The position numbers were made by a program, and so were the translations under genes. A stretch of 63,365 nt of DNA from an uncultured Pseudomonadales bacterium (GTDB lineage: Bacteria; Patescibacteriota; Microgenomatia; UBA1400; MFAQ01), in the NCBI GenBank assembly GCA_964439805.1, contig CAYTOI010000005.1, positions 1 to 63,365 of the forward strand. The letters are read 5' to 3'. The notes under the pieces were generated by a model, which was given only the letters and a program-made list of their open reading frames with translations, searched no databases and was not told the DNA's origin. This document shows, piece by piece, positions 5,090 to 53,800 of the stretch (position 1 is its first letter; each line of letters begins with the position of its first letter).

Positions 5090-6688
5090 TTAATTCTTGC
5101 CAAAATTGTACTGGAAAGGTAAACAGTTTGTATTACCTTTAGAAAGTGTCTGAACACAGACCGGTCCGGACTTGGTAACTGTGGGGTTAGTACGAACAAT
5201 AATTTTCTTGTCACTCCAGTGGATAATATAATCGCCTTGCTCAACACCAGCAATTAGGACTTTACCGACAAAAGGTAGACTTTGGAGGTTTGTCCCGTTA
5301 ATAGTAATATCAACCCAAGCTTCGGATGTTATTGATGGTGAGATACTAAATATTTTTGGATCATTTTGAAACTTGGTAAATCTGCCCACTAGAGAGACCG
5401 ACAAAACCTGAAAGACAAAAAGTAAAACAATAATAAGCGGCTTGTTTCTCCAAAGAATATGGCGTTTAAAGTAGACAATGGCCAAAAATATAGCGACTAA
5501 AGAAAAAATCAAAATACAAAACATGGTTAAGTTTGGAGGTGTTTTGTATTCGGGGTAATAAGACCAAAAAAGTAGATATGATTTGTAAATATTTTCTAGG
5601 CTGCTCCAAAATTTTTTTGTAACAATAATACCAATTAATATTGTAATGATTTGTAAAAATGTTTTTAAACCATTATTGGCATTATTTAAACTTACCTTAG
5701 AAAGCGCTGGTAATAATTTTTCTAGTGGGAATGTTTTCTGATTCTTTTTGTTAAAATTGTAAAATTTTTGAATTACGGCAACGCACAAAAAGAGATAAGC
5801 CCATACTCCAGATTTTTGAGCAAAGCTATGCAGCTCAAAAATTCTAAATATTGGTGTGATTGCTAAAAATAAAATACCTAAAGAGGCTGATATTTGATGT
5901 CCAAATTTGTGACGGTAAATGGTAAGGACCCAAAAAAAGATAATGGAAAATGTCAAAACATAACTATTTAAGTGTAAGTAGAAAATATCTAAAACAATTG
6001 GTATAAGTGTTGCACTTAGCAAAAAATGAAAGCTAGACCCAAGCGTAATTAAAAAAATAATATACAAAGTAAGTGGTAAAAAGTAGATTAGAACACTGGT
6101 TAAATTTTCCTTATCATTTACTACATTTAGCAGTTTTTGCAATACAAAATCGATGGCTTTTTTTCTATCGCTGGTAACTTCTCCTCTGTTAAAAAAAGAG
6201 ACTACCGTGAATACGGGCTCTGTTCTGTCCAAAAATATCCCCCTCCCCTTAATACCTTTTACAGACTCCAATTCAAAAATATAATTCTTCCCTGATGAGT
6301 CTGTGACACCTGGGAAACCAAAAGGGAATAGTTTTCCTGGGAGGAACTGGTCTGTTTTGTATACAGCTTCGTAGTACCATTTTCTTCCACCTTCCTCTTT
6401 AAGGCGGAAAATTATTTCATCGTCACTATCTCTATTACCATTGTTAAATCTGACAGAGACGATTCCCATGTTAGGGTACGTAGCGGTAAACCTACCGAAC
6501 ACCTTATCTCCTGCAAGCAGTTCTCCGGAGCGTGTAGAGATTAGATCAACATTGGTTCCATAGGTAAGAAAGTTGAAAAAACCAAAGCCATTATCAAAAA
6601 GGTACTTGTAAAACATCACCGAGCCAAGCAAAAAAAGCAACAAAGGAACCAAAAAATAAGCAAATATATTTTTAATTTTTTGTTTCAT
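5090..6688 (-). CDS. Membrane protein of unknown function with a C-terminal IPT/TIG-like Ig-fold domain
   Basis: 532 aa. Layout: N-terminal TM, about 150 aa extracytoplasmic segment, multi-TM core, then a C-terminal stretch 'ISPSITSEAWVDITINGTNLQSLPFVGKVLIAGVEQGDYIIHWSDKKIIVRTNP' that fits the IPT/TIG pattern by eye. Confidence 0.4.
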   Translation of the reverse strand: MKQKIKNIFAYFLVPLLLFLLGSVMFYKYLFDNGFGFFNFLTYGTNVDLISTRSGELLAGDKVFGRFTATYPNMGIVSVRFNNGNRDSDDEIIFRLKEEGGRKWYYEAVYKTDQFLPGKLFPFGFPGVTDSSGKNYIFELESVKGIKGRGIFLDRTEPVFTVVSFFNRGEVTSDRKKAIDFVLQKLLNVVNDKENLTSVLIYFLPLTLYIIFLITLGSSFHFLLSATLIPIVLDIFYLHLNSYVLTFSIIFFWVLTIYRHKFGHQISASLGILFLAITPIFRIFELHSFAQKSGVWAYLFLCVAVIQKFYNFNKKNQKTFPLEKLLPALSKVSLNNANNGLKTFLQIITILIGIIVTKKFWSSLENIYKSYLLFWSYYPEYKTPPNLTMFCILIFSLVAIFLAIVYFKRHILWRNKPLIIVLLFVFQVLSVSLVGRFTKFQNDPKIFSISPSITSEAWVDITINGTNLQSLPFVGKVLIAGVEQGDYIIHWSDKKIIVRTNPTVTKSGPVCVQTLSKGNTNCLPFQYNFGKN

Positions 6689-9107
6689 TATTTTCTGCTT
6701 TTGTTATTTTATGTTTTTTTACATCAATAAATATAGAATATCCTGCTAAGGCAAGCAAAGTAGCTCCGGAGATTAATATCCCTATGTAAAATAACCGTTG
6801 GGGCCAAAATTCAATAATAATTTCAAAATTGTAGCTACCATCTTGACTCTGATAACACATACTAGCCTGTTGGCATATTTGCTGCGGATCTATATACCAG
6901 GAGTTTGCATAGCGATTTACGACTTTGTGGGTATTAGAGTCAATAGGTTTCTTCAACCAGGTTTCATAAAAAATCCCGTTTGTTAAATTGTCATTTTGAA
7001 TAGTTCCCTGAAAATTTTTTGAAATAAAATCAATGAAGTAGGTTTCTACATAATCAATTTTTTCGGCACCACTTTCCCATTTTTTGTGTACAGACTTCTT
7101 GTTTTTTCCATCACCTAGATTTGTAATGTAACCTTTATTAATAAAGCCCTCTACTTCTGCCAGAGTTGCTTGATTTTCGCCATTACCATCTAAAATTTTA
7201 TACTTATCTAGGCTTAACAACTTACTAATTTTAGGTGTCTGGCTGTATATTACCCAACCTTTATTAAAAGACTCGGAAAACACTAAGGGAAAGTAATTTT
7301 TTGCACCATGTATTATTACTCTATATTTGGTAGGATTGATTTTTTTATATTCCAAAATAGGAACATCATTAATCACTCTGGGGCCATCTAAGTCATCAGA
7401 TGCATAAATTGCTGATCTAATATTGCCACTAACAGTGCTTGTTTGAACAAATAGTGGAACGTAGACATGTGGAAGAAAGTTAACACTAGAGGCTTTGTAA
7501 AGCTTCACGTACCCCTCTCCAAACGAGTAGTCGTTAGTTGGAGCCTTGGGATTACCCACTTTACCTATTATTGATTCGTCTACAAAAGTTAGTCCTACAT
7601 TGTGATATGCCTGATTAAGCAAAACTGTTTTTTCAAAAATGGGGTTTGATTTGTATGTAAATGAGTAAAATGGTGGACCGAAATATCCCCATTTTGTATA
7701 TATATAAGAAGAATCTGAACCTAGATAGTAGATTTTTGAATCTAGCTTCTGATTATTAATTATTGATGCTACAGAAAAGTACTCTGACGGAACTGTAAAA
7801 CCATACTTTTTATTATCTTTTGCAAACTGGTTAATTTTGGTACTGTTTTTGTAAAAATCACCAAACAAGATAGGAGAACCTGTTATTAAAGTAGCTATCA
7901 ATAATAAAATTTGTAATTTTCTTGAGTATTTTTCCCGTTCTTGAATAAGGATAAATAAATATAATGAGTAAAGTGCAGATAAAACAAATACTGCTCCAGC
8001 GGTAGTTCTTAAAAAAGCGAGTGGATGAAATTTGTTTACAAAATAAATATATATAAATCCAAAAGGAGGATTCGGTCCTACAGATAAAGCTAAAAAAATA
8101 ATTATGAGGACTAAAAGCATCAATTTGTGACCGTCCAATTCATGGTTATGATATTTTTTCATAAATAATATATCCATAAAAAACAAAAATATATATAAAT
8201 AGCTCAAGATAATCATTATTGGGTTTTTCAGATAACGTAGACCTTCCTCTGTGTTAATGCTTATTCCGTTGTGGTGTAAGTTGACCATTTTGTCAACTGT
8301 TGCTGTACCAGAGTCCATCAGTTTGCTGGGGTTATCGTCATCTGGATTTACAGATACTCCGTAACTAGTGGGGCTATAGTTTAAGGCAAAACCAGCTAGT
8401 GGCAATATTAGATAAGATGAAATAAAAATCGACACGACAAACGCGCCAGCGGTTTTTACCAGAAAGGAAAAATTTATTAACTTTAATAAAAAACTAGTTA
8501 CAACCAATACCGCAGAAATTATCAATAAATAAAATATATATTTAGGATTTGGTAGATCCAGTGAGGAAAAATAAATGACAATATTAAGCCAAACGAGATT
8601 TATAATTTTTATTTCCTTTTTCTTTATAAATCCCAAAATTAAGAATATAAACCATGGAATAAATGTATATATATACAAATAATGCCAGGAATTTAGCAAT
8701 GCTGGTGAAAGCAAATAAAAAGTGATTGGAATTGTGAAAGAATAATAATCTTTGCCATTAAAATATAGTTTTGCTAACTTATAAATTCCAAGTCCTGCTA
8801 CAAAATTTAATATAAATAAGATAAGCAATGAAATACTGTAATAACTAAATCCAAAAAACTCAAATATTTTGTAAAAAATGTAAAGTGGATAATAATTGAC
8901 CGAAAAATACAATCCGTTTTGCACTTCTATCCACTGATACAAATACTTAATGACTGCACTACTGTTAAAGGGAATTATTGTATCTCCTCCGATCATTACT
9001 CTCCCCCAAGAAAAGATTGATGGTAAAGCAGAAAGAATAACAATTAATATTAATGGGAAAATTCTAGACGAATCAGATAGTTTATATTGACTTGTTTTTA
9101 TGTTCAT
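6672..9107 (-). CDS. Large polytopic membrane protein, YfhO/AftD(DUF3367)-like GT-C candidate
   Basis: 811 aa. N-terminal loop 'GRVMIGGDTIIPFN', about 12 TM segments, a large extracytoplasmic domain, 'PLVFSESFNKGWVIY' near the C-terminus and a final TM anchor. Similarity is by eye only. Confidence 0.45.
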   Translation of the reverse strand: MNIKTSQYKLSDSSRIFPLILIVILSALPSIFSWGRVMIGGDTIIPFNSSAVIKYLYQWIEVQNGLYFSVNYYPLYIFYKIFEFFGFSYYSISLLILFILNFVAGLGIYKLAKLYFNGKDYYSFTIPITFYLLSPALLNSWHYLYIYTFIPWFIFLILGFIKKKEIKIINLVWLNIVIYFSSLDLPNPKYIFYLLIISAVLVVTSFLLKLINFSFLVKTAGAFVVSIFISSYLILPLAGFALNYSPTSYGVSVNPDDDNPSKLMDSGTATVDKMVNLHHNGISINTEEGLRYLKNPIMIILSYLYIFLFFMDILFMKKYHNHELDGHKLMLLVLIIIFLALSVGPNPPFGFIYIYFVNKFHPLAFLRTTAGAVFVLSALYSLYLFILIQEREKYSRKLQILLLIATLITGSPILFGDFYKNSTKINQFAKDNKKYGFTVPSEYFSVASIINNQKLDSKIYYLGSDSSYIYTKWGYFGPPFYSFTYKSNPIFEKTVLLNQAYHNVGLTFVDESIIGKVGNPKAPTNDYSFGEGYVKLYKASSVNFLPHVYVPLFVQTSTVSGNIRSAIYASDDLDGPRVINDVPILEYKKINPTKYRVIIHGAKNYFPLVFSESFNKGWVIYSQTPKISKLLSLDKYKILDGNGENQATLAEVEGFINKGYITNLGDGKNKKSVHKKWESGAEKIDYVETYFIDFISKNFQGTIQNDNLTNGIFYETWLKKPIDSNTHKVVNRYANSWYIDPQQICQQASMCYQSQDGSYNFEIIIEFWPQRLFYIGILISGATLLALAGYSIFIDVKKHKITKAENNETKN

Positions 9108-13940: not shown

Positions 13941-14686
13941 AAACAAAATTTTCCAAAAAACAGGCTATTTATTGGGATAGTTACACAAAAAATATTGAAA
14001 GATTGGATTTAACCGATTTACCTTTGGCAGAAAAATTGGAGTTTTCTTTTTTTGAGAATTTATTGGGAAATTTTAAGGGCAAAAATATACTTGATTTAGG
14101 TTGTGGAACGGGAAAGCTTGGTCTAAAACTGGCTAAAAATGCAAAATCTGTTGTTGGGATTGATATCTCTAAACACTCTATTGAGATAGCTAACAAGACA
14201 GCAAGAGAATATAAAATAAAAAACTTTAAAGGTGTTGTAGGAGATTTCAAGAAGAAGGGCTACAAAGAATGTTTCGATTTTGTCTTAGCGGTTAATTTAA
14301 TTCACCATACCGATAATTTGGATGAGATTTTGAAGCACGTCAGAGCATCACTAAAAAAAGATGGAAAGTTAGTAATTTTTGAAATGAATCCACTAAATTT
14401 ACTTTTTATACCCTTTTTAACATTAATTGGCCAAATTAAAAGTCATTTAACTTACGAATATCTACGTAGTAATATTTTTTCGCTAAAGATGATTTTGAAT
14501 AGAAATGGTTACCGTTTGGATAGGCAAAAAAGATGGGGATGGCTTCCGACGGCTCTATATAACAAGTCGCTTTTCTTTAAAAGCTTAAATGAGATCCTAA
14601 ACAAAGTACCACTAGTAAACCAATTTACCGCATTTAACGTTTTGATCTATTCTAAGATTAATTTAAAGAAGACACGTCGCTTATAG
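13937..14686 (+). CDS. Class I SAM-dependent methyltransferase
   Basis: 249 aa. 'ILDLGCGTGKLGLKLA' and 'LKKDGKLVIFEMN'. ATGA overlap with the upstream gene. Its 3' end overlaps the convergent gene by 29 nt. Confidence 0.8.
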   Translation: MKTKFSKKQAIYWDSYTKNIERLDLTDLPLAEKLEFSFFENLLGNFKGKNILDLGCGTGKLGLKLAKNAKSVVGIDISKHSIEIANKTAREYKIKNFKGVVGDFKKKGYKECFDFVLAVNLIHHTDNLDEILKHVRASLKKDGKLVIFEMNPLNLLFIPFLTLIGQIKSHLTYEYLRSNIFSLKMILNRNGYRLDRQKRWGWLPTALYNKSLFFKSLNEILNKVPLVNQFTAFNVLIYSKINLKKTRRL

Positions 14687-16838
14687 TAACAGGCGAAACA
14701 TACAAAGTATCAAATTTACTTGTATTTGAAATATTTAAAGTTGAGTTTTTGGGCTGGTAATATAAGTCTCCAGCACATCTACTGCTATTGACACCAGGAT
14801 CAACACTAAACAGGAGATATTCGTCTTCAAATTCAAGTCTAAGTGGTTTTTTTTGGTCATAGTTACATCCAATAATTAACCACACTCCTTGATTTAAACT
14901 TAGTTGATTATTTCTATCGAGGAAGATTTTTTTAAAATTGATGCTTGCTGATATATTTTTTAATTTAAGAGCATCGTACAGGTTCTTACCTTTATAAATA
15001 GTGTATCTGGAGGTAATATGCTCGCCTTTGGTGTTTGATTGTTCAAAAATTTTATACCAAACATCAAAACCATTTTTGGTACCGTGACCTTTTGAAACTA
15101 TAAAGTTTAGTTGTTGATGGCTGGCAAAAAACTCATCAATTTTTTGCAGCTTTTCTTGCTGAAGGTGGAATATTTCAGTTGGACTGGTACCGTATTTTTG
15201 ATAGATAAAGAGATTGTTAACGCTTTTTGCATAGAGTTCTTGCTCTACTAATCCCATTCCTGAAATGTAGCCACTTGAGTCGAAAAGGCGAGGAGAAAAT
15301 AATGGTTGAAAACCATATGAAGGAATTAGAAAGACCCAATCTTCGTTGCTGATTGCTGCAAGATTGGTTACCGGTTTCCTTCTGAGATTTGTTAACATTT
15401 CAGAGCTTTGCCAGTCTATTACTCCCCTATCAATTAACCTAAAGTGGACCTCGTAAAAAAAACCAGCCATAGAAGGAATAAGACTTAGTAGCAGTAAAAC
15501 AAAAACTGACCTTTTCCAAATGGATACTGTGAAATTGCTAAGGGAATAGGCCATCAAAAATGGTAAGGCCATTTGTGAAGGCAGAATTGACCTCATTGAG
15601 TAATCGTTGAAACCTGCGGACTTAACAAACAAGCCAATTATTATGGGTAGCAATATCGCCAATGCTATGTAAATTGCTTTTTTATGATTGGATTTTGGTT
15701 GAACAGCTATAAAAATTGGGATTGCTGCGATAATCAATCCGTACTCAGTAAAAAAAGTTAAGCAAATATTTATCCATTTTGGAGCAAAAGGTAAATATAA
15801 AAACGGTGTCATGTAAAAGCCAAAGGATAACAGCGAACCTCTTCCGGATAGCTCAATGAGATATGGATACAATAGACAAACCACAAAAATTCCGCTTATT
15901 AGTAAAGAAAGACGATTTTTTTTAAAGAAAATAAAGGCTAAACCCAACCAAATAACTAGTGCTATAGATACAAATGTACTAGAGATAAAACAAAACCAAA
16001 CAGCAAAAGTTAACCAAAAAAAGGAAACCTTTTTGTCTTTAATAATAATCAGACCTGTAACAAGTGCGACAATTCCTGGTAGAGTATGCTGAGGAACCCA
16101 GAGCAGTGCTGTGTAAAGATTATTCACAAGGAAGTTGGATAAGTTTAGTACCTGAGACCAAAACTCAATATGGTTGGCTGTCAAAGCACCTGTTTTGGCC
16201 TGGATTAAGGTAGGGACAATATCTAGACCCGTACCAAATACAAAAAGTACAAAGCTAAGCAATCTCTGATACCAAGTAGTAAATAAACCCATGGCAATTT
16301 GAATTACTACATAAAGAACAATAAAGGTAGTTGTAAGTATATAAAAGAAAAAAACTCTGGCGAGATTTAAATTAAAGGCGTTTGAAATTGCAGCTGGGAT
16401 CAAATAATAGCCGTAGTAGTAAGAAAGATTTGCTGAGGGGAAAAAAGGGTGATGGGCTGGCAAGCCACCGGTTTTTATTGCAGACAAAACATAAAGGTGT
16501 TTGTAATAGTCTCCAAGCGCTGTCAATCCAAATACAGTATGTCCGTCGACCGCAACTTGTTTAATAAGTGGTGACAACACAAACCCGAAGACAAAGATTA
16601 TAAAAATTGCAGGGACAACTAGGCAAATACTTTTCCAGTCAAATAAAATAGCAAATATTTTTTTGTAGCTTAGTCTTTCACAGTAAATAACTATTGATGT
16701 AGAAAAAAGTCCCAAAAGCATTGAAATTTCGTATGCTAGCCTTATTGGAGTAATTAAGTAGAGACACGCGTAAATAACGAATGTAAAAATTAAAAATGGA
16801 AATAGTACTAGACGAATTAATTTTAAATTATCAGCCAT
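14658..16838 (-). CDS. Large polytopic membrane protein with a C-terminal extracytoplasmic domain (polymerase or GT-C candidate, unassigned)
   Basis: 726 aa. About 450 aa of densely packed hydrophobic segments are followed by roughly 260 aa of soluble sequence. I recognised no family motif. Confidence 0.4.
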   Translation of the reverse strand: MADNLKLIRLVLFPFLIFTFVIYACLYLITPIRLAYEISMLLGLFSTSIVIYCERLSYKKIFAILFDWKSICLVVPAIFIIFVFGFVLSPLIKQVAVDGHTVFGLTALGDYYKHLYVLSAIKTGGLPAHHPFFPSANLSYYYGYYLIPAAISNAFNLNLARVFFFYILTTTFIVLYVVIQIAMGLFTTWYQRLLSFVLFVFGTGLDIVPTLIQAKTGALTANHIEFWSQVLNLSNFLVNNLYTALLWVPQHTLPGIVALVTGLIIIKDKKVSFFWLTFAVWFCFISSTFVSIALVIWLGLAFIFFKKNRLSLLISGIFVVCLLYPYLIELSGRGSLLSFGFYMTPFLYLPFAPKWINICLTFFTEYGLIIAAIPIFIAVQPKSNHKKAIYIALAILLPIIIGLFVKSAGFNDYSMRSILPSQMALPFLMAYSLSNFTVSIWKRSVFVLLLLSLIPSMAGFFYEVHFRLIDRGVIDWQSSEMLTNLRRKPVTNLAAISNEDWVFLIPSYGFQPLFSPRLFDSSGYISGMGLVEQELYAKSVNNLFIYQKYGTSPTEIFHLQQEKLQKIDEFFASHQQLNFIVSKGHGTKNGFDVWYKIFEQSNTKGEHITSRYTIYKGKNLYDALKLKNISASINFKKIFLDRNNQLSLNQGVWLIIGCNYDQKKPLRLEFEDEYLLFSVDPGVNSSRCAGDLYYQPKNSTLNISNTSKFDTLYVSPVTISDVSSLN

Positions 16839-17768
16839 TTACTTATCTTTGTAATTTTTTTTGTACCAGTTAATTGTTTTTTGCAGACCGGACTCTAGCT
16901 CTACCAATGGAAAATTAACAAGACTGTCTTGGACAGAAGTATCCAATACACGATTTTGGACGCCAATTGCTTTGGATAGGCTTAAAACTATTTTTGATTG
17001 ACTACTGAGCATGCGATTGATTTGCTTTACCAAATCGAGAATAGAAGCTGAGTTGTGAGTGGCCAAGTTTAAAGGACCTGTGTATTTTTTTTCAACAGAC
17101 GTTAAGATGATCCTTACTACATCTTCAACATATATAAATTGCCTGGTTTGGGATCCATCACCCCATATTTCAATATCTTCGTTGTTTATTAATTTTTTTA
17201 TGAAACTAGGAATGGCACGGCTAGAAGTCTCGTCAAAATGATCTTGAGGACCATAGATGTTGGTGGGTCTTGGTAAGTAAATTCTTAAATTAAATTCCTT
17301 TGCAAAGAGGTTAGCCAAAATTTCTCCAAATCTTTTTGATAAAACATAGCCATTTGTGCTATGGCTGCTGTACTTTTGATAATCGTCGTCTTCTTTGGTT
17401 GGACTGGGAGCTAAGGCAGAATAGATTTCAGCTGTACTTACCAACACAACATCTTTGACGTCATTCTTTTTTGCAGCGTTTAGAATATTGGAGATTATTC
17501 TAATGTTTGCATCCATAATTTTGGCTGCATTACGAATTTTGTATTCTGTGTTACCGTCTAAAGCTGCACAATTTATAACAATATTTGCCTTTTTTAAAGC
17601 CCTAATCGCCTGTATTGGCTTAAGCAAATTGTATTTGTTTTTAGTAACAGATCTGACCAATGCCCCTCTTTTTTTTAACTCTGAAACAAAATGTTTACCC
17701 AAAAACCCATTTGCACCAGTTACTGCTACTATTTTTCCAGTCCAAAATGTTTTATTTTTTAATTTCAT
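16839..17768 (-). CDS. NAD(P)-dependent sugar epimerase/dehydratase/reductase (extended SDR)
   Basis: 309 aa. Glycine-rich 'VAVTGANGFLGKH' and catalytic 'YVLSKRFGE' (YxxxK). Abuts neighbours on both sides. Confidence 0.85.
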   Translation of the reverse strand: MKLKNKTFWTGKIVAVTGANGFLGKHFVSELKKRGALVRSVTKNKYNLLKPIQAIRALKKANIVINCAALDGNTEYKIRNAAKIMDANIRIISNILNAAKKNDVKDVVLVSTAEIYSALAPSPTKEDDDYQKYSSHSTNGYVLSKRFGEILANLFAKEFNLRIYLPRPTNIYGPQDHFDETSSRAIPSFIKKLINNEDIEIWGDGSQTRQFIYVEDVVRIILTSVEKKYTGPLNLATHNSASILDLVKQINRMLSSQSKIVLSLSKAIGVQNRVLDTSVQDSLVNFPLVELESGLQKTINWYKKNYKDK

Positions 17769-18784
17769 TATTGTTTCCAGTGTCGTCTACTAGATTCAGA
17801 TGGGGCAATTTTACCTCTAACCCAGCCATAAATATATATAAATAAAGTAGAGTAGCAAATAATAGGATGAAAAAGCCAGGCAGAATCGGGTTTTCTAATG
17901 TAGCCTATGATGGTTTGGTAAATTATCGGAATTATTAAAACACAAGAAAAAACAAATTTAATTATTTGAGGAAGGAAAGAACCCTCCCAATCAACGTCCC
18001 TATTTTTATTGGCTTTATGGAAAGACATGTCGTTTATTCGTCGAAGCTGTTTTTTGAAAAATTTGTTTAAATCATTTTCTACAAAAGTGTGGACAATACT
18101 AGTCTTTACTTTTGCTATTTTTACTGACCCTTGGGATCTAATTAGCTTTAAGACGATGTCAATATCAAAGAGATAATCTGAGTTTTTTATTGCTTCTTTT
18201 AAATATTTTGAGCGAAAAATGGTTCCATTTGCGCCAATTGTGGGAACTGGTTCTTGGTTTAAATTGATTTTTAAATACCTTTCTTTATCTTCTGTAGGGA
18301 AGTTTAGGTCGGTCCAGCGATTTGTAATATATGAGTATCTGTCGTAGTTGCCGATAAAAAGACAGAGTGGGTCGTTCATCCCTAGCAGAGCGAAATATCT
18401 AGATAGTGCAGGATCTGATTTTCTGTATGTGTACCTTATTGGTTCCGAGAGAATCATCCCTTTGTCTATAAAAGGTTCTACCATGTCAGAGAGCCAATGT
18501 TTATTGGGAAGAATATTGTCTGAGTCCACAAGAGCAATGAGCTCTCCCGCAGCGACTTTTACTCCACAAGCTTTCCCCGACTCGCCTGTTTTTAATTTGT
18601 TAATTACTACTTTTGTTTTGTATTTTTTGCTTATGGAAATGGTTTTGTCAATTGAGCCACCATCGGCAATAATAATCTCAATTTTTGACTTTGGGTATTT
18701 TTGAATTGAGATTGATTTGAGACATTTTTCCAGGACAGACTCCGAGTTTAAAGTTGGGATAACTATAGAGATACTGGGCACCAT
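17768..18784 (-). CDS. GT2 glycosyltransferase with two C-terminal TM helices (GtrB/ArnC/DPM1-like architecture; candidate polyprenyl-phosphate sugar synthase)
   Basis: 338 aa. 'SISIVIPTLNSESVLEKCL', 'IIIADGGSIDKT', 'LVDSDN'. The C-terminal hydrophobic pair is 'IIKFVFSCVLIIPIIYQTIIGYI' / 'LFHPIICYSTLFIYIYGWV'. Confidence 0.75.
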   Translation of the reverse strand: MVPSISIVIPTLNSESVLEKCLKSISIQKYPKSKIEIIIADGGSIDKTISISKKYKTKVVINKLKTGESGKACGVKVAAGELIALVDSDNILPNKHWLSDMVEPFIDKGMILSEPIRYTYRKSDPALSRYFALLGMNDPLCLFIGNYDRYSYITNRWTDLNFPTEDKERYLKINLNQEPVPTIGANGTIFRSKYLKEAIKNSDYLFDIDIVLKLIRSQGSVKIAKVKTSIVHTFVENDLNKFFKKQLRRINDMSFHKANKNRDVDWEGSFLPQIIKFVFSCVLIIPIIYQTIIGYIRKPDSAWLFHPIICYSTLFIYIYGWVRGKIAPSESSRRHWKQ

Positions 18785-18802: not shown

Positions 18803-18831
18803 AATAAAAAAGAGCCCGCTATTGCGGGCTC
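18803..18831 (-). terminator. Rho-independent terminator downstream of the 154-aa gene
   Basis: The minus strand reads GAGCCCGC-AATA-GCGGGCTC followed by TTTTTTATTAC. This is a perfect 8-bp GC-rich stem (18812..18819 / 18824..18831), a 4-nt loop and a T6 tract (18806..18811). Confidence 0.8.
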
Positions 18832-18886
18832 CTGGTTTGAGTTTTTATAAAGGAGAGTTAATTTGGCTTGTATTCGTAAAAGTCTT

Positions 18887-19351
18887 TCATAGACATTGGG
18901 CGTCTTCTTGAACTGCTACTTGGGCAGCTTTTTTGTTCAGGAAATAGCGAGAGATCTCTTCAGGGGCTAGTTGGATCAGGAGGTCTAAGGTATTAAAGAG
19001 ACAGAACGCCTCTTTGTTGCCTTCTGTCCAAAAAATCTTTACATATTTAAGCCCTTCATTTTCAAGCTTTTCACCTTCAGGCTCTTTGTCTTCGTGAGTA
19101 ATGATGATGGGTTTAATTCTGGCTGGAATTTCTACTTTTTTGACCCGGACAATGTAGTTAAGAATTTCAATTGTTTCCAATGGTGAAAGACAAAGAATTC
19201 CTCTGCCGCCATTGGTGTGGTGGCGGTTGGAGCCGTCGGGAAATGGGATTTGAGAAAAAAGAGAGATCTTGGGACCCATCTCGGTATACTCAATTTTTAC
19301 ATGGCCTAAATAATCTGTAGTCGGGATGTTCAAATAAGCTAAATTGTTCAA
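18887..19351 (-). CDS. Hypothetical soluble acidic protein (orphan, monocistronic)
   Basis: 154 aa with no TM segments. The TTG start is preceded by GGAGG (19357..19361) at a 5-nt spacing, the clearest SD I saw in the window. It has its own terminator downstream. Confidence 0.6.
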   Translation of the reverse strand: MNNLAYLNIPTTDYLGHVKIEYTEMGPKISLFSQIPFPDGSNRHHTNGGRGILCLSPLETIEILNYIVRVKKVEIPARIKPIIITHEDKEPEGEKLENEGLKYVKIFWTEGNKEAFCLFNTLDLLIQLAPEEISRYFLNKKAAQVAVQEDAQCL

Positions 19352-19413: not shown

Positions 19414-21009
19414 CTAGGCGTTTTCGCCGTGCTGGCCTAGCTGTTTGGGAGAGAAGTCCATCATGTGGCCAAGGAATCTCCAACCTGCCATAAAGAGGAA
19501 TTTGATGTCGTCTATACTCCTTATCTCCTTTATCTTCCTAATTATGAATTTTGGACCCAGAAAGGATTTGTACAAGTCTTGAGTGAGCTCTAGGACCTGC
19601 TTTTCTGTCAACGAGCTTTTCATGACTGGTTTGCGCATGTCGTAGTCATCGTAATCCTCTGAGAGTAGCCAGCCTTTTTCTTTGCATTCTTTCCAGAGTG
19701 GAGTTCCTGGGTAAGGAATAACCACTGTGGCCTGGAGAGTGTCAACATAACCTTTTTTAAAGCAGTTTTTTGCGAGGTTTACTGTATTTCTGGCATCTTC
19801 GTAGGTTTCCCATGGGTAGCCCATCATAATAGTAAGGTGAGGATCAAGGCCTCCTTTTTTAGCCATTCTGACACCTTCTTCAATTTGTTCTACCTTTAAG
19901 CCTTTATCTAGGTGATCCAAGGTGTATTGATTGGCTGACTCCATGCCGTAGAGAATAAAGCGGAAGTTGGCTTTGCCCATGAGATTATATTGATCTTGCT
20001 TGAGAGCATTAAGACGCATGTTGCAACCAAAGACGACTTTTTTACTGTACCCTGATTCAATCATCATGTTACAAAAATCAGTAAGAGGTTTGCCGATCAT
20101 AAAAGTACCCGCATCATCGAAGATTTCTTTGACATGATACTTGTCTACAACGTGTTTTACTTCATCAAATAATCTCTGTGGTGAAAATCTTCTGTATGAA
20201 CCTATAGGGTTAATGGTATGGTCCCAAACGCAGAAAGTGCATCTGTTCCACCAGCAGTCTCTACCAGAATACATATATGTTGCTGGAGTGTATTTGTAGT
20301 TGCCGTTGTAGACGCTGTAGAGTTCCCACCTTGTAAGTTCTCTATCGACAAAAGGAAGATCGTTAAGGTTGTGAGCTATACTGGGCTTGCCTGAATTGCA
20401 AAGTTTTAATTTATTTTTGACTGTTACTGTTTCTGCGGGCTTGTCTGCAATTCTTTTGTCGCCTTGTTTCCACCAGATGCCGCCTTCGAGTTTTTCGCCT
20501 TTGGTTAAATGATTCAAAAGATTTACTATGACAAAGTCATAATCCCCTCCGGTAATGAGAAAATCTACTTTTGAGTTCTCAAACATTTCTGAGGGCATAA
20601 AAGTGACATGGTCTCCTACCCAAACAGTGATTAATTTAGGAAGTTCTTTTTTTAGTTTGTTTATTAGTTTCCAGTGTTTTTTTACTATTGGAGACTTGGT
20701 CTCTACCATTAGAACGTCTGGCTTGAACTTTTTGAACTCTGCTAGCCACTCATCAAAAGTTTGCTCCTCTGCTATTCCGTCCATCCACTTTACTGAGTAG
20801 CCATTTGCTTGGGCGTTTGAGGCTGCATAAGCAGGGACCATGGGGTAGATGTAGGTTTTGGCGTTGAAGTATTGGAACTGTCTGTTTTGGGAAAGGAGCA
20901 TGACGCCTTTATCAGAAGGCATTGGGGGGTAGCCGACAACTAGGCGGAGGGCATTAGATTTCAGATCTCGGTTAACAGATCTCAGTTTTTTCTTTTTGTT
21001 TTTAATCAT
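19414..21009 (-). CDS. B12-binding-domain radical SAM enzyme (class B-like)
   Basis: 531 aa. The N-terminal flavodoxin-like segment 'DVLMVETKSPIVKKHWKLINKLKK..VWVGDHVTFMP' resembles a cobalamin-binding domain. The cluster motif 'GRDCWWNRCTFCVW' has CX4CX2C spacing as read. Downstream lies a TIM-barrel-like region 'RFILYGMESANQ'. Confidence 0.8.
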   Translation of the reverse strand: MIKNKKKKLRSVNRDLKSNALRLVVGYPPMPSDKGVMLLSQNRQFQYFNAKTYIYPMVPAYAASNAQANGYSVKWMDGIAEEQTFDEWLAEFKKFKPDVLMVETKSPIVKKHWKLINKLKKELPKLITVWVGDHVTFMPSEMFENSKVDFLITGGDYDFVIVNLLNHLTKGEKLEGGIWWKQGDKRIADKPAETVTVKNKLKLCNSGKPSIAHNLNDLPFVDRELTRWELYSVYNGNYKYTPATYMYSGRDCWWNRCTFCVWDHTINPIGSYRRFSPQRLFDEVKHVVDKYHVKEIFDDAGTFMIGKPLTDFCNMMIESGYSKKVVFGCNMRLNALKQDQYNLMGKANFRFILYGMESANQYTLDHLDKGLKVEQIEEGVRMAKKGGLDPHLTIMMGYPWETYEDARNTVNLAKNCFKKGYVDTLQATVVIPYPGTPLWKECKEKGWLLSEDYDDYDMRKPVMKSSLTEKQVLELTQDLYKSFLGPKFIIRKIKEIRSIDDIKFLFMAGWRFLGHMMDFSPKQLGQHGENA

Positions 21010-21029
21010 TTAAGGTATTTATTTGATGG

Positions 21030-21049
21030 ATTCCTGCCTTCGCAGGAAT
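21030..21049. repeat. Perfect 8-bp hairpin (ATTCCTGC-CTTC-GCAGGAAT) of a GC-rich palindromic element between the ferredoxin and radical SAM genes
   Basis: Read directly: 21030..21037 pairs with 21042..21049. The flanks are GG...GACGGG. No T-tract follows on the transcribed (minus) strand. Confidence 0.6.
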
Positions 21050-21072
21050 GACGGGAAATGTATTAATAAAAA

Positions 21073-21342
21073 TTATGGAAAGATTTGATCGCCTGCTTGG
21101 TTTTTGATAGCTATAGCAAGTATTGGGCAACAGCGGGCTGCTTCGAGAACCATATCTAAGGTATCACCATCCGGATTGCTTATTATCGCTTTACCATCTT
21201 CGGCGCGGATTTCAAAAACTCCTGGGGCAGCTATGGCACAAGGTCCGGCTGCAATACATTTATTTAGATCCACAATTATGGTGTGGCCGTCGGATCTTTT
21301 GCCGGTGGAAAAGTTTTCGTCGGTAGTTACATTTTGGTTCAT
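21073..21342 (-). CDS. Small single-cluster ferredoxin, [3Fe-4S]-type ligand pattern
   Basis: 89 aa. 'DLNKCIAAGPCAIAAPGVFEI' is a CxxAxxC pattern, with Ala where a 4Fe ferredoxin has its second Cys. The distal ligand region is 'ARCCPILAIAI'. ATGA-type overlap with the upstream GT2. Confidence 0.8.
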   Translation of the reverse strand: MNQNVTTDENFSTGKRSDGHTIIVDLNKCIAAGPCAIAAPGVFEIRAEDGKAIISNPDGDTLDMVLEAARCCPILAIAIKNQAGDQIFP

Positions 21343-22373
21343 TGTTTTAGTTTATCAGTAAATAATAATCCTTGTAAAAAGCGAACTCCATACCAGAGAT
21401 GTGTAACAAAGATGACGGGAACAGACAAAAGAGATTGAGTCATTTTTTTTGAAAAGGTAAGAATCCAGATGGAGTTGAGGAAGAGGAGAATAAAATAAAC
21501 AGCTAGAGGGCTGAAAATTACAATCTTAATGGCGGGGATTGCTTCAGTTCCACTAATGCGGAAATTCGCAATGACGAGCGAAACCAACAAAGCCATATAT
21601 ATCAAGAAAAATGATGGGAGAAAGTAGATAAGTCTGTGAGAGGTTTTTGGTAGGACTTTTGCAAAAAAACCTCTGTGTAACCCAAAGTTTCCGTTTTGCC
21701 GCAGATGTGGCCTGAGGACTGGACGTCGGTGGTGGTAGACCAACACTTTGGGATCATAAATTATTTTTTGGTTTGTTTTGCTTACCAAATCCAAACAGAG
21801 TTTGGTGTCTTCCCCAGGCCAATAATTTGAGTCATACCCACCTACTTCCAAAAACTCTTTTCTTCGTACAGCCAAATTCATTGAAGGATAATCTTCAACA
21901 AATCTTTTTTTTCTAGGTAAAAATCTATAAAGATATGTCCCCGAACCAAAAGGGGAAGCTGAAGCCCAACCACTTGCTTCTTCTATTATTGAAACATTTG
22001 GAGGGGTGACTCCTGGACCACCAACTCCCACAATATTTTTACCTTCAAAATTTTTAACTATGTTTTTCAGCCAATCTTTGTGAGGATAGGCATCATCATC
22101 GATAAACGCAAGGACCTCCCCTTTTGCCATTTTGGCACCATCGTCTCTTTTTTCGGCTGGGCCAACATACTTTCCGTAGTGTTTTTTGCTGAGCTTAGGG
22201 TAACTTAAATTATTTTTGTAATCAGTTATCAAAATTATTTCGTAGTTTTTGAAACTTTGCTTTTGAATTGCATCGAGACACTCTACCAAATATGGGTTAT
22301 TTTCTTTGTAGTCGATGATGATGATGGAGACTGTGGGGTGTGATTGGCGTTTGGTGCGAGGTTCTAAGTTCAT
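21339..22373 (-). CDS. GT2 glycosyltransferase with a C-terminal multi-TM region
   Basis: 344 aa. 'VSIIIIDYKENNPYLVECLDAIQKQ' and 'FIDDDAY', with 3-4 hydrophobic segments after about residue 235. Confidence 0.8.
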   Translation of the reverse strand: MNLEPRTKRQSHPTVSIIIIDYKENNPYLVECLDAIQKQSFKNYEIILITDYKNNLSYPKLSKKHYGKYVGPAEKRDDGAKMAKGEVLAFIDDDAYPHKDWLKNIVKNFEGKNIVGVGGPGVTPPNVSIIEEASGWASASPFGSGTYLYRFLPRKKRFVEDYPSMNLAVRRKEFLEVGGYDSNYWPGEDTKLCLDLVSKTNQKIIYDPKVLVYHHRRPVLRPHLRQNGNFGLHRGFFAKVLPKTSHRLIYFLPSFFLIYMALLVSLVIANFRISGTEAIPAIKIVIFSPLAVYFILLFLNSIWILTFSKKMTQSLLSVPVIFVTHLWYGVRFLQGLLFTDKLKQ

Positions 22374-22378
22374 GGAAG

Positions 22379-23173
22379 TTATTTATAGCGTGGTTTGAGA
22401 TTAGGGTCACCCTGCCAGCGGTCTTTGTAGTCATTGTCGTAGTAATGGAGAACGTAAATGCGATAAAGAATGGCGAGGTAGTCTTTGGCGAAATTTTCTA
22501 CCGCTTTTACCCCTACATTACTAGAGAAGTTGTGAACTATCTCTACTGGTGACTCATAAATTCTGGTGTACCCAAGCCTGTTAGCAACAGCCAACATCTC
22601 CAAGTCAAAAGCCCAGCGCTTCACCATAAGCCGCGGTAATATTTTTACAAGAACTTCTCGTCGAAAAACCTTAAGCCCTGTCTGAGTATCAGAAACGTTT
22701 AGACCAAAAAAGAATCTAGTCATTCTTTGTACTATATATGAGAGAATTTTTCGCTGCCAGGGATAGTCTACCCTGCTAGCATGATGTCTTTTGCTTCCCA
22801 CAATAATATCTGCCTTGTACCACTTCATGTGCTCCAAGGCGAGCCCGAGTCCACTAGCATGCAAATCTCCACCTGCGTCGATAAAAGCAATTATTCCGCC
22901 CTTTGCTCTGGCCATGCCGTAACGTATAGCGTAACCCTTGCCTTTGTTGTGTTTATAAAAACAGATTTTTATATTGTTTGCCTTGGTTTTTTTGGCCCTA
23001 AAATAAGTTTTGTCCTTTTTGTCTATCAGCCCATCCACTACACAAATCACTTCCCAAGGTCTATTGAGAGCGTTTAAATAATTTACCAAGACACTTATAT
23101 CGCTATGAATAGATTTGCAGTTGAAAGCAGGAACAATGACCGAAAGCAGTCTTTGGTCGTGTTTAGGTCTCAT
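22379..23173 (-). CDS. GT2, DPM1/ALG5-like polyprenyl-phosphate glycosyltransferase
   Basis: 264 aa. Motifs: 'LSVIVPAFN', 'ICVVDG', 'KGKGYAIRYG', 'FIDAGGDL', 'VSDTQTGLKVF' (compare the DTQCGFK-type motif of Dol-P-sugar synthases). Confidence 0.7.
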   Translation of the reverse strand: MRPKHDQRLLSVIVPAFNCKSIHSDISVLVNYLNALNRPWEVICVVDGLIDKKDKTYFRAKKTKANNIKICFYKHNKGKGYAIRYGMARAKGGIIAFIDAGGDLHASGLGLALEHMKWYKADIIVGSKRHHASRVDYPWQRKILSYIVQRMTRFFFGLNVSDTQTGLKVFRREVLVKILPRLMVKRWAFDLEMLAVANRLGYTRIYESPVEIVHNFSSNVGVKAVENFAKDYLAILYRIYVLHYYDNDYKDRWQGDPNLKPRYK

Positions 23174-24434
23174 GGGTGAATTTTAACCTACTCTTAAAGG
23201 GATACAAGAGGAAAACCACCAATGAGAGGAATAAGCCTAAATAGATGAATAGATTTATGGTCACTAAAGTTGCAATCGTGTTACCAAATTTATACAAGAC
23301 AAATGGCTGAACCACTGCTGCCGCCAAAAGCAAGTAATTGGCATTTTCTCTATTTGTAGCCATTAAGAATGATAATAGATACTGAGAAAGTGCAAACAAA
23401 ACCATAGAGTAAGCAAACAAAGGTAATAAGGGACTAATTTCCAAATACTGAGATCCTGAAAGAAGAGAAATAATTGTTTTTGGAATAAGAGTAAAGACTA
23501 GTGAGCCCAAAAATCCAAGAACAGTTATTCCCATGCCAAGCTTAAAAAATATTGAACGAGAACTGATTTTTTTGGCGAAGCGTATAGAAACGGTGGGAAG
23601 AACTAAACTAATAATTGGGGTGAGACCAAAGAGAATCATACGGCCTAAGATGGACAATGAGGAATACAGACCCGAAATGTGAGTGTCAAAAACAATTCTT
23701 ACCACCAGAATGTCGACAGACATAAGTGTCATTGTGCCAAGACTATATATAAAGGAGAAAAACGTAAAATTTTTGAGAGAGAACTTTTCCTTACCTGTAG
23801 GAATTTCCTTTGGATATATAGAGTCTTTGATGTAGTAAAGCGTAATAATTGTAATGGCTAAACCTGTGATTATTTGGCCGAGCACCGCTCCGGAAGCACC
23901 CAGCCCCATCTTTATGAAGATTACTGAAATCCCAATGGTAAAAACAACACTGACAAAACCAAGAACGGTTTGCACCAAAAACTTTTGAAAGCCAGCCAAG
24001 AAAGAACTAACTATAGTTTGGAACAGAGAAATAAAGGTGCTAATGCCTAGAACAATAAAGGCCAAAGGGTGCGCCTTGAAGAGCGAGGCTAGCGGCGTGC
24101 TAAAAATAATCAGTATCATTCCAACAATTAAGCCGAGCGGTGCAGTCTTATTTAATAAATAGTAAAAAAAGATGTTAATTGAACGCTCGTCTCCCTTACC
24201 CTTAAAATCAGCAATAAACTTGGTAACTAAACTACCAATGGTTCCCGTAGGGATGGCCAAAATATACATTAGAGAAAGATAAGAGAGAAACTCGCCATAC
24301 TCTGGAGGAGTAAGCAAGCGGAGAAGAACAAGGTGAAACAGATAACGAAAGAAATTAAGGGTAAAGTTGCCTATATAATACAAAAGACTTTCTCTAAACT
24401 TGGCCGTGTTAAGCTTTTGAAGTTTTTTGTACAT
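23163..24434 (-). CDS. MOP-superfamily oligosaccharide flippase (Wzx-like)
   Basis: 423 aa with about 12 TM segments. The N-terminus 'FRESLLYYIGNFTLNFFRYLFHLVLLRLLTPPEYGEF' is typical of the polysaccharide-biosynthesis-protein family. Confidence 0.75.
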   Translation of the reverse strand: MYKKLQKLNTAKFRESLLYYIGNFTLNFFRYLFHLVLLRLLTPPEYGEFLSYLSLMYILAIPTGTIGSLVTKFIADFKGKGDERSINIFFYYLLNKTAPLGLIVGMILIIFSTPLASLFKAHPLAFIVLGISTFISLFQTIVSSFLAGFQKFLVQTVLGFVSVVFTIGISVIFIKMGLGASGAVLGQIITGLAITIITLYYIKDSIYPKEIPTGKEKFSLKNFTFFSFIYSLGTMTLMSVDILVVRIVFDTHISGLYSSLSILGRMILFGLTPIISLVLPTVSIRFAKKISSRSIFFKLGMGITVLGFLGSLVFTLIPKTIISLLSGSQYLEISPLLPLFAYSMVLFALSQYLLSFLMATNRENANYLLLAAAVVQPFVLYKFGNTIATLVTINLFIYLGLFLSLVVFLLYPFKSRLKFTHET

Positions 24435-53799: not shown

Positions 53800-53800
53800 A

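Follow-up and report, generated by a model that had tools for sequence, protein, structure and literature searches.

An HpnJ-like radical SAM protein linked to a membrane glycosyltransferase in a candidate lipid-linked glycan cassette of Patescibacteria and other phyla

Radical S-adenosylmethionine (SAM) enzymes of class B, in which a Rossmann-type B12-binding domain is fused to a radical SAM core, number more than 220,000 (PMC12931638); only a handful have been characterized, and the non-methylase branch that includes HpnJ and BchE is the least understood. HpnJ has been proposed, from a B. cenocepacia knockout, to contract a hopanoid-bound glucosamine pyranose to a cyclopentitol ether (PMC9204698, PMC13459092), and calditol synthase and PtmC have been proposed to act in an analogous way on hexoses bound to an aglycone (PMC9092360). 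The ring-contraction enzyme OxsB, a radical SAM protein that depends on cobalamin, ligates its cluster through a CX4CX2C motif and is the only structurally characterized class-B enzyme with that spacing (PMC9204698). Here we analyze a relative of these enzymes encoded on a 63,365-nucleotide stretch of DNA (herein referred to as the window) from an uncultured Pseudomonadales bacterium (GTDB lineage Bacteria; Patescibacteriota; Microgenomatia; UBA1400; MFAQ01; contig CAYTOI010000005.1 of GenBank assembly GCA_964439805.1). It is a 531-aa radical SAM enzyme of class-B architecture (19414-21009 of the window, minus strand) that its open reading frame (ORF), Pfam and NCBIfam profiles, an AlphaFold2 (AF2) model and Foldseek comparisons identify as HpnJ-like.

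An earlier reading of this DNA made from the letters alone (the sequence-only reading) had described a B12-binding radical SAM enzyme with a non-canonical cluster motif, paired with a ferredoxin inside a glycan operon, and had suggested C-methylation or another radical modification of a sugar or of its polyprenyl carrier. What is new here is that, in Patescibacteria and in several further phyla, a very conserved and widespread HpnJ-like radical SAM protein is tied, within a compact cassette, to a specific membrane glycosyltransferase of family 2 (GT2). The CX4CX2C motif is real but has a precedent, and the cassette, on present evidence, is not a categorically new mechanism.

Distribution of the clade and its glycosyltransferase cassette

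A species scan that sampled one genome per GTDB species recovered relatives of the 531-aa protein in at least 574 genomes. Among the matches listed, the carriers are mostly Patescibacteria (the candidate phyla radiation, CPR), the closest being Ca. Collierbacteria at 85-87% identity, with WWE3, Roizmanbacteria, Moranbacteria, Berkelbacteria and many unclassified Patescibacteria as further carriers; at 50-56% identity the same matches extend to Chloroflexi, Dehalococcoidia, Nitrospinota, Brocadiaceae, FCPU426, Desulfofervidaceae and one archaeal metagenome-assembled genome. From its closest matches, the window very probably derives from a Microgenomates genome of Collierbacteria-like type. Conservation within the clade amounts to about 65% identity between candidate phyla.

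Synteny was assessed by tblastn of the window's neighboring genes against 80 loci from the species scan (L007-L086), together with unbiased clustering of all ORFs in those loci; the denominators given below (66, 57 and 60) are subsets of the loci, 66 being those with enough upstream sequence. An orthologue of the 344-aa membrane GT2 of the window (21339-22373, minus strand; a GT-A domain followed by C-terminal transmembrane helices) directly precedes the radical SAM gene, in the same orientation, in 60 of 66 loci, is about 340 aa long and is the most tightly linked partner, the linkage spanning Collierbacteria to Chloroflexi, Nitrospinota, Brocadiaceae and one archaeon. Further upstream are a GT2 of about 265 aa resembling polyprenyl-phosphate (Pren-P) sugar synthases (41/57 loci; 264 aa in the window, 22379-23173, minus strand) and a MOP flippase (42/57 loci; in the window a 423-aa MOP/Wzx-type protein recognized by Pfam Polysacc_synt, 23163-24434, minus strand). 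A second membrane GT2 of about 340 aa (338 aa in the window, 17768-18784, minus strand, identified by Pfam and NCBIfam) is frequent just downstream of the radical SAM gene, where 22 of 60 loci carry it at full length within 3 kb, and 30 loci carry it anywhere. SDR epimerases of one ORF cluster recur in 18 loci at roughly +3.4 kb; their window counterpart is a 309-aa sugar epimerase/reductase (16839-17768, minus strand; Pfam Epimerase, 161.7 bits) that is GDP-fucose-synthase-like (NCBIfam Fcl, 123 bits against a cut-off of 500). In Roizmanbacteria the cassette lies amid housekeeping genes (pyruvate kinase and amino-acid biosynthesis), and it is hence a self-contained module and not merely a part of a large island. 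Sister clades with other cysteine loops are likewise GT2-linked, and one member of the CX7 sister group overlaps the stop codon of a GT2.

The whole 63-kb window is one glycan-assembly island with nearly all genes on the minus strand. It encodes at least ten PMT_2/PMT GT-C transferases, one YfhO, two PTPS_related membrane proteins, about 12 GT2s, three GT4s, two MOP flippases, four class-I methyltransferases and one SDR epimerase. The AF2 model of the 344-aa GT2 (pLDDT 90.6) shows a GT-A domain and four long C-terminal helices; its top fold match is PcManGT, a crenarchaeal membrane mannosyltransferase of N-glycan assembly that acts on lipid-linked glycan, followed by hyaluronan (HAS) and cellulose (BcsA) synthases, and its NCBIfam matches are MftF-like (93 bits) and AglG-like (70 bits; glucosyl-dolichyl-phosphate glucuronosyltransferase). 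The 264-aa GT2 weakly resembles PpgS, ArnC, GtrB and AglJ, with NCBIfam scores below the family cut-offs (PpgS, 51.9 bits against 370; ArnC, 35; AglJ, 29) and PDB sequence matches to GtrB sll0501 and ArnC (E 2e-5 to 2e-4). The gene set is predicted to form a pathway that loads sugars on polyprenyl phosphate, tailors them, flips them and transfers them outside the membrane, and the description of the locus as one of lipid-linked sugar chemistry in the sequence-only reading thus extends to the entire window, with its glycosyltransferases, flippases, methyltransferases and epimerase.

Between the 344-aa GT2 and the radical SAM gene lies an 89-aa single-cluster ferredoxin (21073-21342, minus strand), recognized by Pfam Fer4_13 (42.8 bits; Fer4_15 also matched). 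Its cysteines are arranged as C29-I-A-A32-G-P-C35 ... C71-C72-P73, and its best PDB match is the [3Fe-4S] ferredoxin II (FdII) of D. gigas (1fxd), with C29, A32, C35 and C72-P73 aligning to FdII C8, C11, C14 and C50-P, so that A32 occupies the position of the second, non-ligand cysteine (C11). In other genomes, 29 ferredoxin ORFs occupy the same place between GT2 and radical SAM gene, all reading C-I-[SAG]-A-[GA]-x-C ... C-P, with alanine at the second ligand position in 29 of 29; C71 of the window protein is an extra cysteine that these orthologues do not conserve. The pattern C-x2-X-x2-C ... C-P, with a non-cysteine second position and three ligands, is therefore present throughout, and the [3Fe-4S] assignment is well founded at the level of sequence, the cluster type itself being a prediction.

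The ferredoxin is nevertheless a lineage-specific accessory and not a defining partner. It is present in 29 of the 66 loci and is limited to the subclade in which the radical SAM protein shares at least about 60% identity with the query (Collierbacteria, Roizmanbacteria, WWE3 and relatives); among the loci examined, the versions of the cassette in Chloroflexi, Nitrospinota, Brocadiaceae and others lack it. The ferredoxin named in the sequence-only reading, with its CxxAxxC...CP pattern, thus holds to the exact coordinates and through 29 orthologues. The co-occurrence of radical SAM, ferredoxin, GT2 and DPM-like genes, which that reading had proposed to check across genomes, is seen at differing frequencies of the partners (GT2, 60/66; Pren-P GT2, 41/57; flippase, 42/57; ferredoxin, 29/66). 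The pairing of the two proteins stands as an adjoining ferredoxin with a three-cysteine pattern, but not as a constant partnership.

Several related loci carry additional genes around the cassette. In three WWE3 loci (L001, L002 and L003; e.g., L001:6957-7925) a 322-aa protein without a family, faintly similar to the glycosyl-hydrolase-like DUF4015 (E 0.0016), separates the ferredoxin from the radical SAM gene, and genes downstream include a SIS (GmhA-like) protein and a fused NTP-transferase/GHMP-kinase, which suggests heptose-nucleotide supply. Seventeen related loci (e.g., L017:8684-9193, L016:5510-6022 and L021:8622-9125) encode, directly 3' of the radical SAM gene and in the same orientation, a polytopic membrane protein of about 155-180 aa with the conserved motifs D-x-D-H-x-x-D-Y, H-x-W-E and H-x-x-x-D and a faint YdjM-like match (E 0.11); this protein of about 163 aa is absent from the window and may be a membrane metal-hydrolase of the same pathway. 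A CX9 relative (L089; GCA_964353785.1, CAYGWK010000005.1) belongs to a row of genes that encodes four radical SAM paralogues with B12 domains, a SPASM radical SAM protein, a methyltransferase, a GT4, a GT2 and a YfhO and that resembles a cluster for glycan tailoring by multiple radical SAM enzymes. The 27-kb plasmid of Lawsonia intracellularis (L088; 5920-7383 and 8363-9493) encodes a distant relative (25% identity, E 3e-31) beside GT2s, GalE, a SIS protein, at least six class-I methyltransferases and a second radical SAM gene; from its gene content, this is a further locus for sugar modification that includes a class-B-like radical SAM enzyme.

Family placement, domains and cluster motif

The best NCBIfam match of the 531-aa protein is HpnJ (TIGR03471; 165.3 bits against a cut-off of 577.6; E 2e-48; residues 51-513 on profile positions 29-464), and the second is BchE (TIGR02026; 117.1 bits against 481). 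All other profiles reach at most 66 bits, among them ApyD (66 bits), the methylases PhpK, HpnR, MgmA and the RiPP C-methylases, the lipid-biosynthesis B12 radical SAM profile TIGR04072 (a weak 54.5 bits) and the AprD4 family profile (NF033070; 32.9 bits against 500), the resemblance to AprD4 being at the level of fold only. The protein is a member of none of these equivalogs, since every score is far below the curated cut-off. HpnJ was also the best and most frequent family in 47 of 48 more distant representatives; no true HpnJ occurred among the 48, none of which reached the cut-off (best E 5.9e-141). A true HpnJ named by PGAP aligns by BLASTP at 26% identity (E 6e-33) with the cysteine motifs superposed. 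Membership of HpnJ itself was rejected on the score (165 against 577 bits) and on the flanking GT2s, which are not HpnI-like, and we regard the protein, from these sequence comparisons, as HpnJ-like but not HpnJ.

Public names for the family are wrong or empty. Several close homologues are called anaerobic magnesium-protoporphyrin IX monomethyl ester cyclase (BchE) or YgiQ (UPF0313) by JGI, and other databases give "hypothetical" or a generic B12-binding radical SAM protein. We rejected the BchE and YgiQ annotations on score (for BchE, 117 against 481 bits) and on the GT2 synteny, and suggest that these names can be corrected to "HpnJ-like glycan-associated radical SAM protein". Literature searches found no paper on the family.

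The two-domain "B12-binding radical SAM" architecture is real. Pfam Radical_SAM (PF04055) matches residues 250-412 at 56.8 bits, above its gathering threshold (GA) of 29.5, and a three-cysteine motif stands at the start of the barrel, as is characteristic of the superfamily; Pfam B12-binding (PF02310) matches residues 52-154 at 31.5 bits (E 1.8e-7), slightly below its GA of 32.1. An AF2 model built from an alignment of 68 homologues (mean pLDDT 81.8, pTM 0.85) places a five-strand/five-helix Rossmann domain ahead of a radical SAM barrel and a helical C-terminal region, with low confidence confined to the termini and the Cys loop 253-268; in that loop it is expected, because a metal site was modeled without its metal. 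By Pfam and the model, the B12-binding-like domain covers approximately residues 22-170 (20500-20946, minus strand), and the barrel, delimited by PF04055, invariant columns and the HpnJ alignment, covers approximately residues 243-445 (19675-20283, minus strand), including an E295-x-F-D-D strand equivalent to the "GGE" strand. The top Foldseek matches in the PDB are MgmA/QCMT, AprD4, TsrM, OxsB, CysS and TokK: MgmA/QCMT (9ccb) is best by E-value (1e-18), AprD4 (6fd2) is best by TM-score (0.65-0.66 on the query and 0.75-0.76 on the target; E 1.4e-18; 13-14% identity) and OxsB follows with E 1e-14, a TM-score of about 0.6 on the query and 13-15% identity. A PDB sequence search gave two weak, C-terminal matches, again 9ccb and 6fd2. 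The fusion of a Rossmann-type B12-binding domain to a radical SAM core that defines class B is thus seen in the subthreshold PF02310 match, in the model and in the fold neighbors, and the 531-aa enzyme with a cobalamin-binding-like N-terminal domain described in the sequence-only reading is upheld at the exact coordinates. Plus-strand ORFs over the radical SAM and ferredoxin genes are short shadows with no family matches.

Whether this domain holds cobalamin is a separate matter. The N-terminal domain is extremely conserved in the family alignments, and after its first strand it carries a clade-specific beta-hairpin insertion of 13 residues (residues 36-48; 20866-20904, minus strand), modeled as strands 36-39 and 45-48, with an S-Q-N-R-Q-F-Q-Y-F motif that is invariant in two family alignments; the HpnJ profile and BLASTP alignments begin only C-terminal of it. 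The hairpin occupies what we take to be the position of DxHxxG in His-on cobalamin proteins, and we speculate that it could contact cofactor or substrate. Class-B enzymes bind cobalamin base-off/His-off, without a diagnostic sequence motif, AprD4 carries the same domain yet binds no cobalamin (PMC12931638), and ArsL has a related B12-type domain without cobalamin. Cobalamin binding by the 531-aa protein is putative, the Pfam match being below threshold and AprD4 having the domain without the cofactor.

The cluster motif, which would ligate a [4Fe-4S] cluster with SAM, reads C252-WWNR-C257-TF-C260 (20230-20256, minus strand), and C252, C257 and C260 form the sole suitable cysteine triad of the protein. 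The spacing is CX4CX2C rather than the canonical CX3CX2C. It is kept in 120 of the 120 closest database homologues (identity at least 64%), in which 116 motifs are identical and four have single substitutions, and in 78 of 79 orthologues taken from species-representative genomes, with CX7 as the one exception; the three cysteines are invariant in both family alignments (A1 and A2). In the alignment with the PGAP-named HpnJ of a Paraburkholderia plasmid, YSGRDCWWNRCTFCVW of the window protein faces YTGRGCR-SKCTFCLW with a one-residue gap, and because the HpnJ motif (C-RSK-C-TF-C) superposes on the triad, the latter is the canonical cluster site with a one-residue insertion. A different triad in the homologues, which the sequence-only reading had named as grounds for abandoning its motif, was not seen; homologues including true HpnJ align on these cysteines, and the residues it had picked out are exact. 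Its "non-canonical" label holds for the one-residue-longer spacing but not for a lack of precedent, given the CX4CX2C of OxsB.

A broad search of 1.84 billion cluster representatives, which recovered 25,893 relatives at E <= 0.001, places the insertion in its wider setting. Relatives down to about 35-40% identity read C-W-[WY]-[GN]-[RK]-C-[TS]-F-C, sister groups have longer loops between the first and second cysteines (CX7, e.g., CWYRHEGGC; CX9-10; CX17-18), and the canonical C-P-[FY]-x-C-x-[FY]-C is found in a few members and in all more distant relatives, at or below 31% identity. As judged from these alignments, CX4 is a clade feature and the loop a tolerant insertion point (X3, X4, X7 and X9-18 across the superclade). 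Loop length varies freely, so spacing tells little about function, and CX4CX2C is probably not functionally diagnostic.

Two sets of homologues depart from this pattern at the same site. Five (P0122-P0126) carry an intein (Intein_splicing/Hint) placed exactly at CTF|C, for which the window counterpart is 20230-20232 (C260), most with a LAGLIDADG homing endonuclease and one with an HTH domain; the +1 extein cysteine nucleophile is the third cluster cysteine. Inteins usually occupy the most conserved functional sites, and their location here fits the triad being the active-site loop. Five other full-length relatives (P0139, P0144, P0145, P0150 and P0154; 472-512 aa, 34-38% identity) have lost all three cluster cysteines (e.g., RDSDWGQSSLG and RGSLYNSYNSV) and may be catalytically dead paralogues.

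Proposed pathway and competing explanations

It is probable that the 531-aa enzyme carries out the radical tailoring of a lipid-linked sugar made by the GT2s. Tentatively, and with the caution due to a claim somewhat short of even support, we hypothesize that its gene belongs to a large, uncharacterized clade of class-B architecture, related to HpnJ and BchE, that tailors the product of a conserved lipid-linked-glycan cassette. As to the chemistry, we lean with some hesitation toward an HpnJ-type, non-methylating rearrangement (contraction of a pyranose ring, or carbocyclization to a cyclitol-like unit) in preference to C-methylation, because HpnJ and BchE outscore the methylases and because of the analogy with hpnI-hpnJ; in the two hpnJ loci that we inspected, hpnJ is next to or near hpnI, which encodes the GT2 that installs the sugar. 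It is possible, if rather doubtful, that the cassette (flippase, Pren-P-sugar GT2, membrane GT2, radical SAM enzyme and, optionally, ferredoxin) builds, on polyprenyl phosphate as the carrier, either a carbocycle (a cyclitol or carbasugar) or a C-branched sugar, and that GT-C transferases attach this unit to the envelope after its export.

In such a pathway the 264-aa ArnC/GtrB-like GT2 would load a sugar on polyprenyl phosphate, and the 344-aa membrane GT2, often together with the 338-aa one, would extend or use that sugar at the cytoplasmic face. The radical SAM enzyme would hold a [4Fe-4S] cluster through C252, C257 and C260, which would be reduced, in Microgenomates and WWE3 by the adjoining [3Fe-4S] ferredoxin as a candidate electron donor; cleavage of SAM would then yield a 5'-deoxyadenosyl radical that could abstract hydrogen from the lipid-anchored sugar. 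The MOP flippase would then flip the modified unit, and its transfer would fall to the island's many GT-C enzymes of the PMT_2/YfhO kinds.

Several points weigh against a rearrangement of this kind by an HpnJ-like enzyme served by the ferredoxin. The score against HpnJ falls well short of the equivalog threshold, and in a rough neighbor-joining tree (a distance tree, indicative only) the query clade and its CX7 and CX9-17 sisters form a superclade apart from the true HpnJ group, with BchE outside. The flanking GT2s of the window have no specific similarity to HpnI (E 0.01 and 1.3), and the 63 kb contain no HpnK-like deacetylase or hopanoid gene. The ferredoxin is missing from 37 of 66 loci, and [3Fe-4S] ferredoxins often have a higher potential than a radical SAM cluster needs. 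The HpnJ reaction is itself known from a knockout alone (PMC13459092, PMC9092360), and in a published similarity network HpnJ co-clusters with MoeK5 and Fom3, C-methylases that act on sugar and phosphonate substrates (PMC9204698), so kinship with HpnJ does not rule out methylation.

The competing explanation that we take most seriously, although we consider it doubtful, is a cobalamin-dependent radical SAM C-methyltransferase resembling MoeK5, GenK, GenD1 or Fms7, which would place a methyl group on an unactivated carbon of the lipid-linked sugar, with methylcobalamin in the N-terminal domain and the ferredoxin giving both the cluster electron and the electron for reduction of Co(II) to Co(I). 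The class-B architecture seen in Pfam, the model and Foldseek agrees with this, as does the extreme conservation of the N-terminal domain, expected if a cofactor is held there, and the top Foldseek match by E-value, MgmA/QCMT, is a cobalamin-dependent methylase. A demand for two electrons per turnover would, moreover, account for a dedicated ferredoxin. Known methylase profiles nonetheless score far below HpnJ and BchE, the Pfam B12-binding match is below threshold and most homologues have no precomputed PF02310 match, and the island already has four class-I methyltransferases, although these would serve O- or N-methylation. To our knowledge, Patescibacteria generally lack cobalamin synthesis, which also counts against a methylase. 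Most characterized class-B enzymes are methylases (PMC9204698, PMC12931638), and MoeK5, the co-clustering partner of HpnJ, methylates a lipid-linked sugar (PMC9204698). The sequence-only reading had moved from class B to C-methylation; its sugar-tailoring context stands, but C-methylation as the default does not, the nearest families (HpnJ and BchE) being non-methylases.

An AprD4-type, cobalamin-independent enzyme, or a radical dehydrogenase or epimerase, would instead dehydrate a 1,2-diol of the lipid-linked sugar, or oxidize or epimerize that sugar, to yield a deoxy, keto or epimerized unit, and use its Rossmann domain for substrate binding only. AprD4 gives the highest TM-scores (E 1.4e-18), is one of only two PDB sequence matches, and acts on a sugar with the same domain and no cobalamin (PMC12931638); the SDR epimerase/reductase found after the cassette, in the window as well as in 18 loci, could, like AprD3, finish a dehydration. 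With an AprD4 profile score of 32.9 against 500 bits, well below that of HpnJ, an identity of 13-14%, and an SDR much less tightly linked than the GT2, we judge this unlikely. More improbable is an enzyme that modifies the lipid carrier or a membrane lipid rather than the sugar, by polyprenyl cyclization, cross-linking or methylation in the manner of GrsA/B, Hgm or ladderane-type B12 radical SAM proteins. The sequence-only reading had allowed for modification of the polyprenyl carrier, lipid tails are the substrates of several class-B enzymes (PMC13459092; bioRxiv 10.1101/2023.10.20.563219) and TIGR04072 matches weakly at 54.5 bits; the tightest partners, however, are glycosyltransferases and a flippase and not prenyl- or lipid-synthesis genes, and neither cassette nor window has a prenyltransferase or lipid gene. 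Least credible is a BchE- or YgiQ-type housekeeping enzyme or a RiPP maturase in a coincidental glycan neighborhood, for which the JGI names and the BchE (117 bits) and ApyD (66 bits) profile matches could be cited. The BchE score falls far short of the 481-bit cut-off, the window and 86 related loci yielded no genes for tetrapyrroles or peptide precursors, and a GT2 linkage in 60 of 66 loci across phyla cannot be coincidence. This explanation is effectively refuted by synteny, and so is the outcome that the sequence-only reading had set against itself, a known housekeeping family unrelated to glycans.

The envelope chemistry of Patescibacteria is almost unknown, and a radical SAM-tailored sugar that has been kept through extreme genome reduction probably matters for the cell surface, perhaps for attachment to a host. 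For a clade present in at least 574 species-level genomes, the genetic partner very probably makes or uses the enzyme's substrate, and the cassette offers a compact, testable system of four or five genes for HpnJ-like action on lipid-linked sugars. If the product is a carbocycle or C-branched sugar, head-group chemistry of the HpnJ/Cds type would for the first time extend beyond hopanoids and archaeal tetraethers, and the CPR cell surface would contain a previously unknown building block, common to some Chloroflexi, Nitrospinota and anammox bacteria.

Locus organization and comparison with known systems

The stop of the 344-aa GT2 gene overlaps the ferredoxin start by 4 nt, and the two are, from this arrangement, predicted to be translationally coupled; 63 nt separate the ferredoxin from the radical SAM gene. 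That spacer contains a perfect 8-bp GC-rich hairpin, CATTCCTGC-GAAG-GCAGGAATC (21029-21050, minus strand; dG -12.2 kcal/mol, z -2.2), which occurs once in the window, has no T-tract after it, and could be an mRNA processing or stability element or the remnant of a small palindromic repeat. Directly 3' of the radical SAM gene, and before the 338-aa GT2, lies a 154-aa, window-specific ORF (orf154; 18887-19351, minus strand) with a GGAGG Shine-Dalgarno sequence and a TTG start. Its product is predicted to be soluble, has no tblastn match in 86 related loci and no significant Pfam family; a relationship to the membrane protein of about 163 aa found in 17 related loci was rejected, hmmsearch giving no match. 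In a Collierbacteria locus (L007) the GT2 directly follows the radical SAM gene without orf154, which looks like a lineage-specific insertion. Past orf154, an intrinsic-terminator-like hairpin of 10 bp (seven GC) followed by a T-run (18810-18833, minus strand) is the first good intrinsic terminator on the minus strand downstream of the radical SAM gene and ends the ferredoxin-radical SAM-orf154 unit. The 4-nt overlap, the 63-nt gap and a terminator only after orf154 are consistent with the single transcription unit claimed in the sequence-only reading. Promoter and terminator scans of the window gave counts not above shuffled expectation, with only 18810-18833 convincing, and tRNA and Rfam scans of the window had no match. 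The sequencing runs that contain the sequence are of DNA only (metagenome contigs) and come from a wastewater metagenome.

Elsewhere in the window are large proteins without a family (726 aa at 14658-16838, 811 aa at 6672-9107 and 1016 aa at 55660-58710) and three consecutive GT2 ORFs at 52993-55629 (minus strand), of which 52993-53946 and 53801-54832 overlap by 146 nt and 53801-54832 and 54703-55629 by 130 nt; the upstream-most TTG starts of these overlapping ORFs are probably not real starts.

Comparison with HpnJ shows a near-full-length alignment, the same two-domain architecture, a C-x-x-C-[LV]-W continuation of the motif and an adjoining GT2 for a lipid-linked sugar; HpnJ differs in its CX3CX2C spacing and the lack of the SQNRQFQ hairpin, and the window, from a CPR host, differs in having no hopanoid pathway, HpnI-like GT2 or HpnK. 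No tetrapyrrole genes, as would accompany BchE, were found in the window or related loci. OxsB shares CX4CX2C, a fold-level match and a non-methylase action on a sugar ring, but has no sequence-level match, is about 730 aa long with extra domains, and acts on a soluble nucleotide with OxsA, not GT2s, as its partner. MoeK5, GenK, GenD1 and Fms7 share the class-B architecture and act on assembled glycosides (lipid-linked for MoeK5), but belong to actinomycete antibiotic pathways. AprD4, the 1,2-diol dehydratase of apramycin biosynthesis (6fd2), has in common a Rossmann-like N-terminal domain with a radical SAM core, a sugar substrate and the best TM-score; it differs in using no cobalamin, in a family profile score of 33 bits and in an antibiotic cluster with the reductase AprD3.

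The ferredoxin shares with D. gigas FdII and with the CxxAxxC/CxxHxxC [3Fe-4S] ferredoxins of actinobacterial P450s a single-cluster Fer4_13/15 fold, three cysteine ligands (C...C...CP) and a non-ligating second position; it differs in a 20-residue N-terminal extension and in adjoining a radical SAM gene, whereas the known ones serve a P450 or a sulfite-reduction chain. The locus as a whole can be compared with the Pren-P pathways ArnC/ArnD/ArnT, CsbB/GtcA/YfhO and AglJ/AglG/AglR, and we know of no ArnC-, GtrB/CsbB- or AglJ-type pathway with a radical SAM tailoring step. The logic common to ArnC-ArnD-ArnE/F-ArnT, GtrB/CsbB-GtcA-YfhO and AglJ-AglG-AglR is loading by a GT2, tailoring on the lipid, flipping and transfer by a GT-C enzyme. 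Every one of these enzyme classes has homologues in the window, where, unlike in those pathways, the flippase is of the MOP type.

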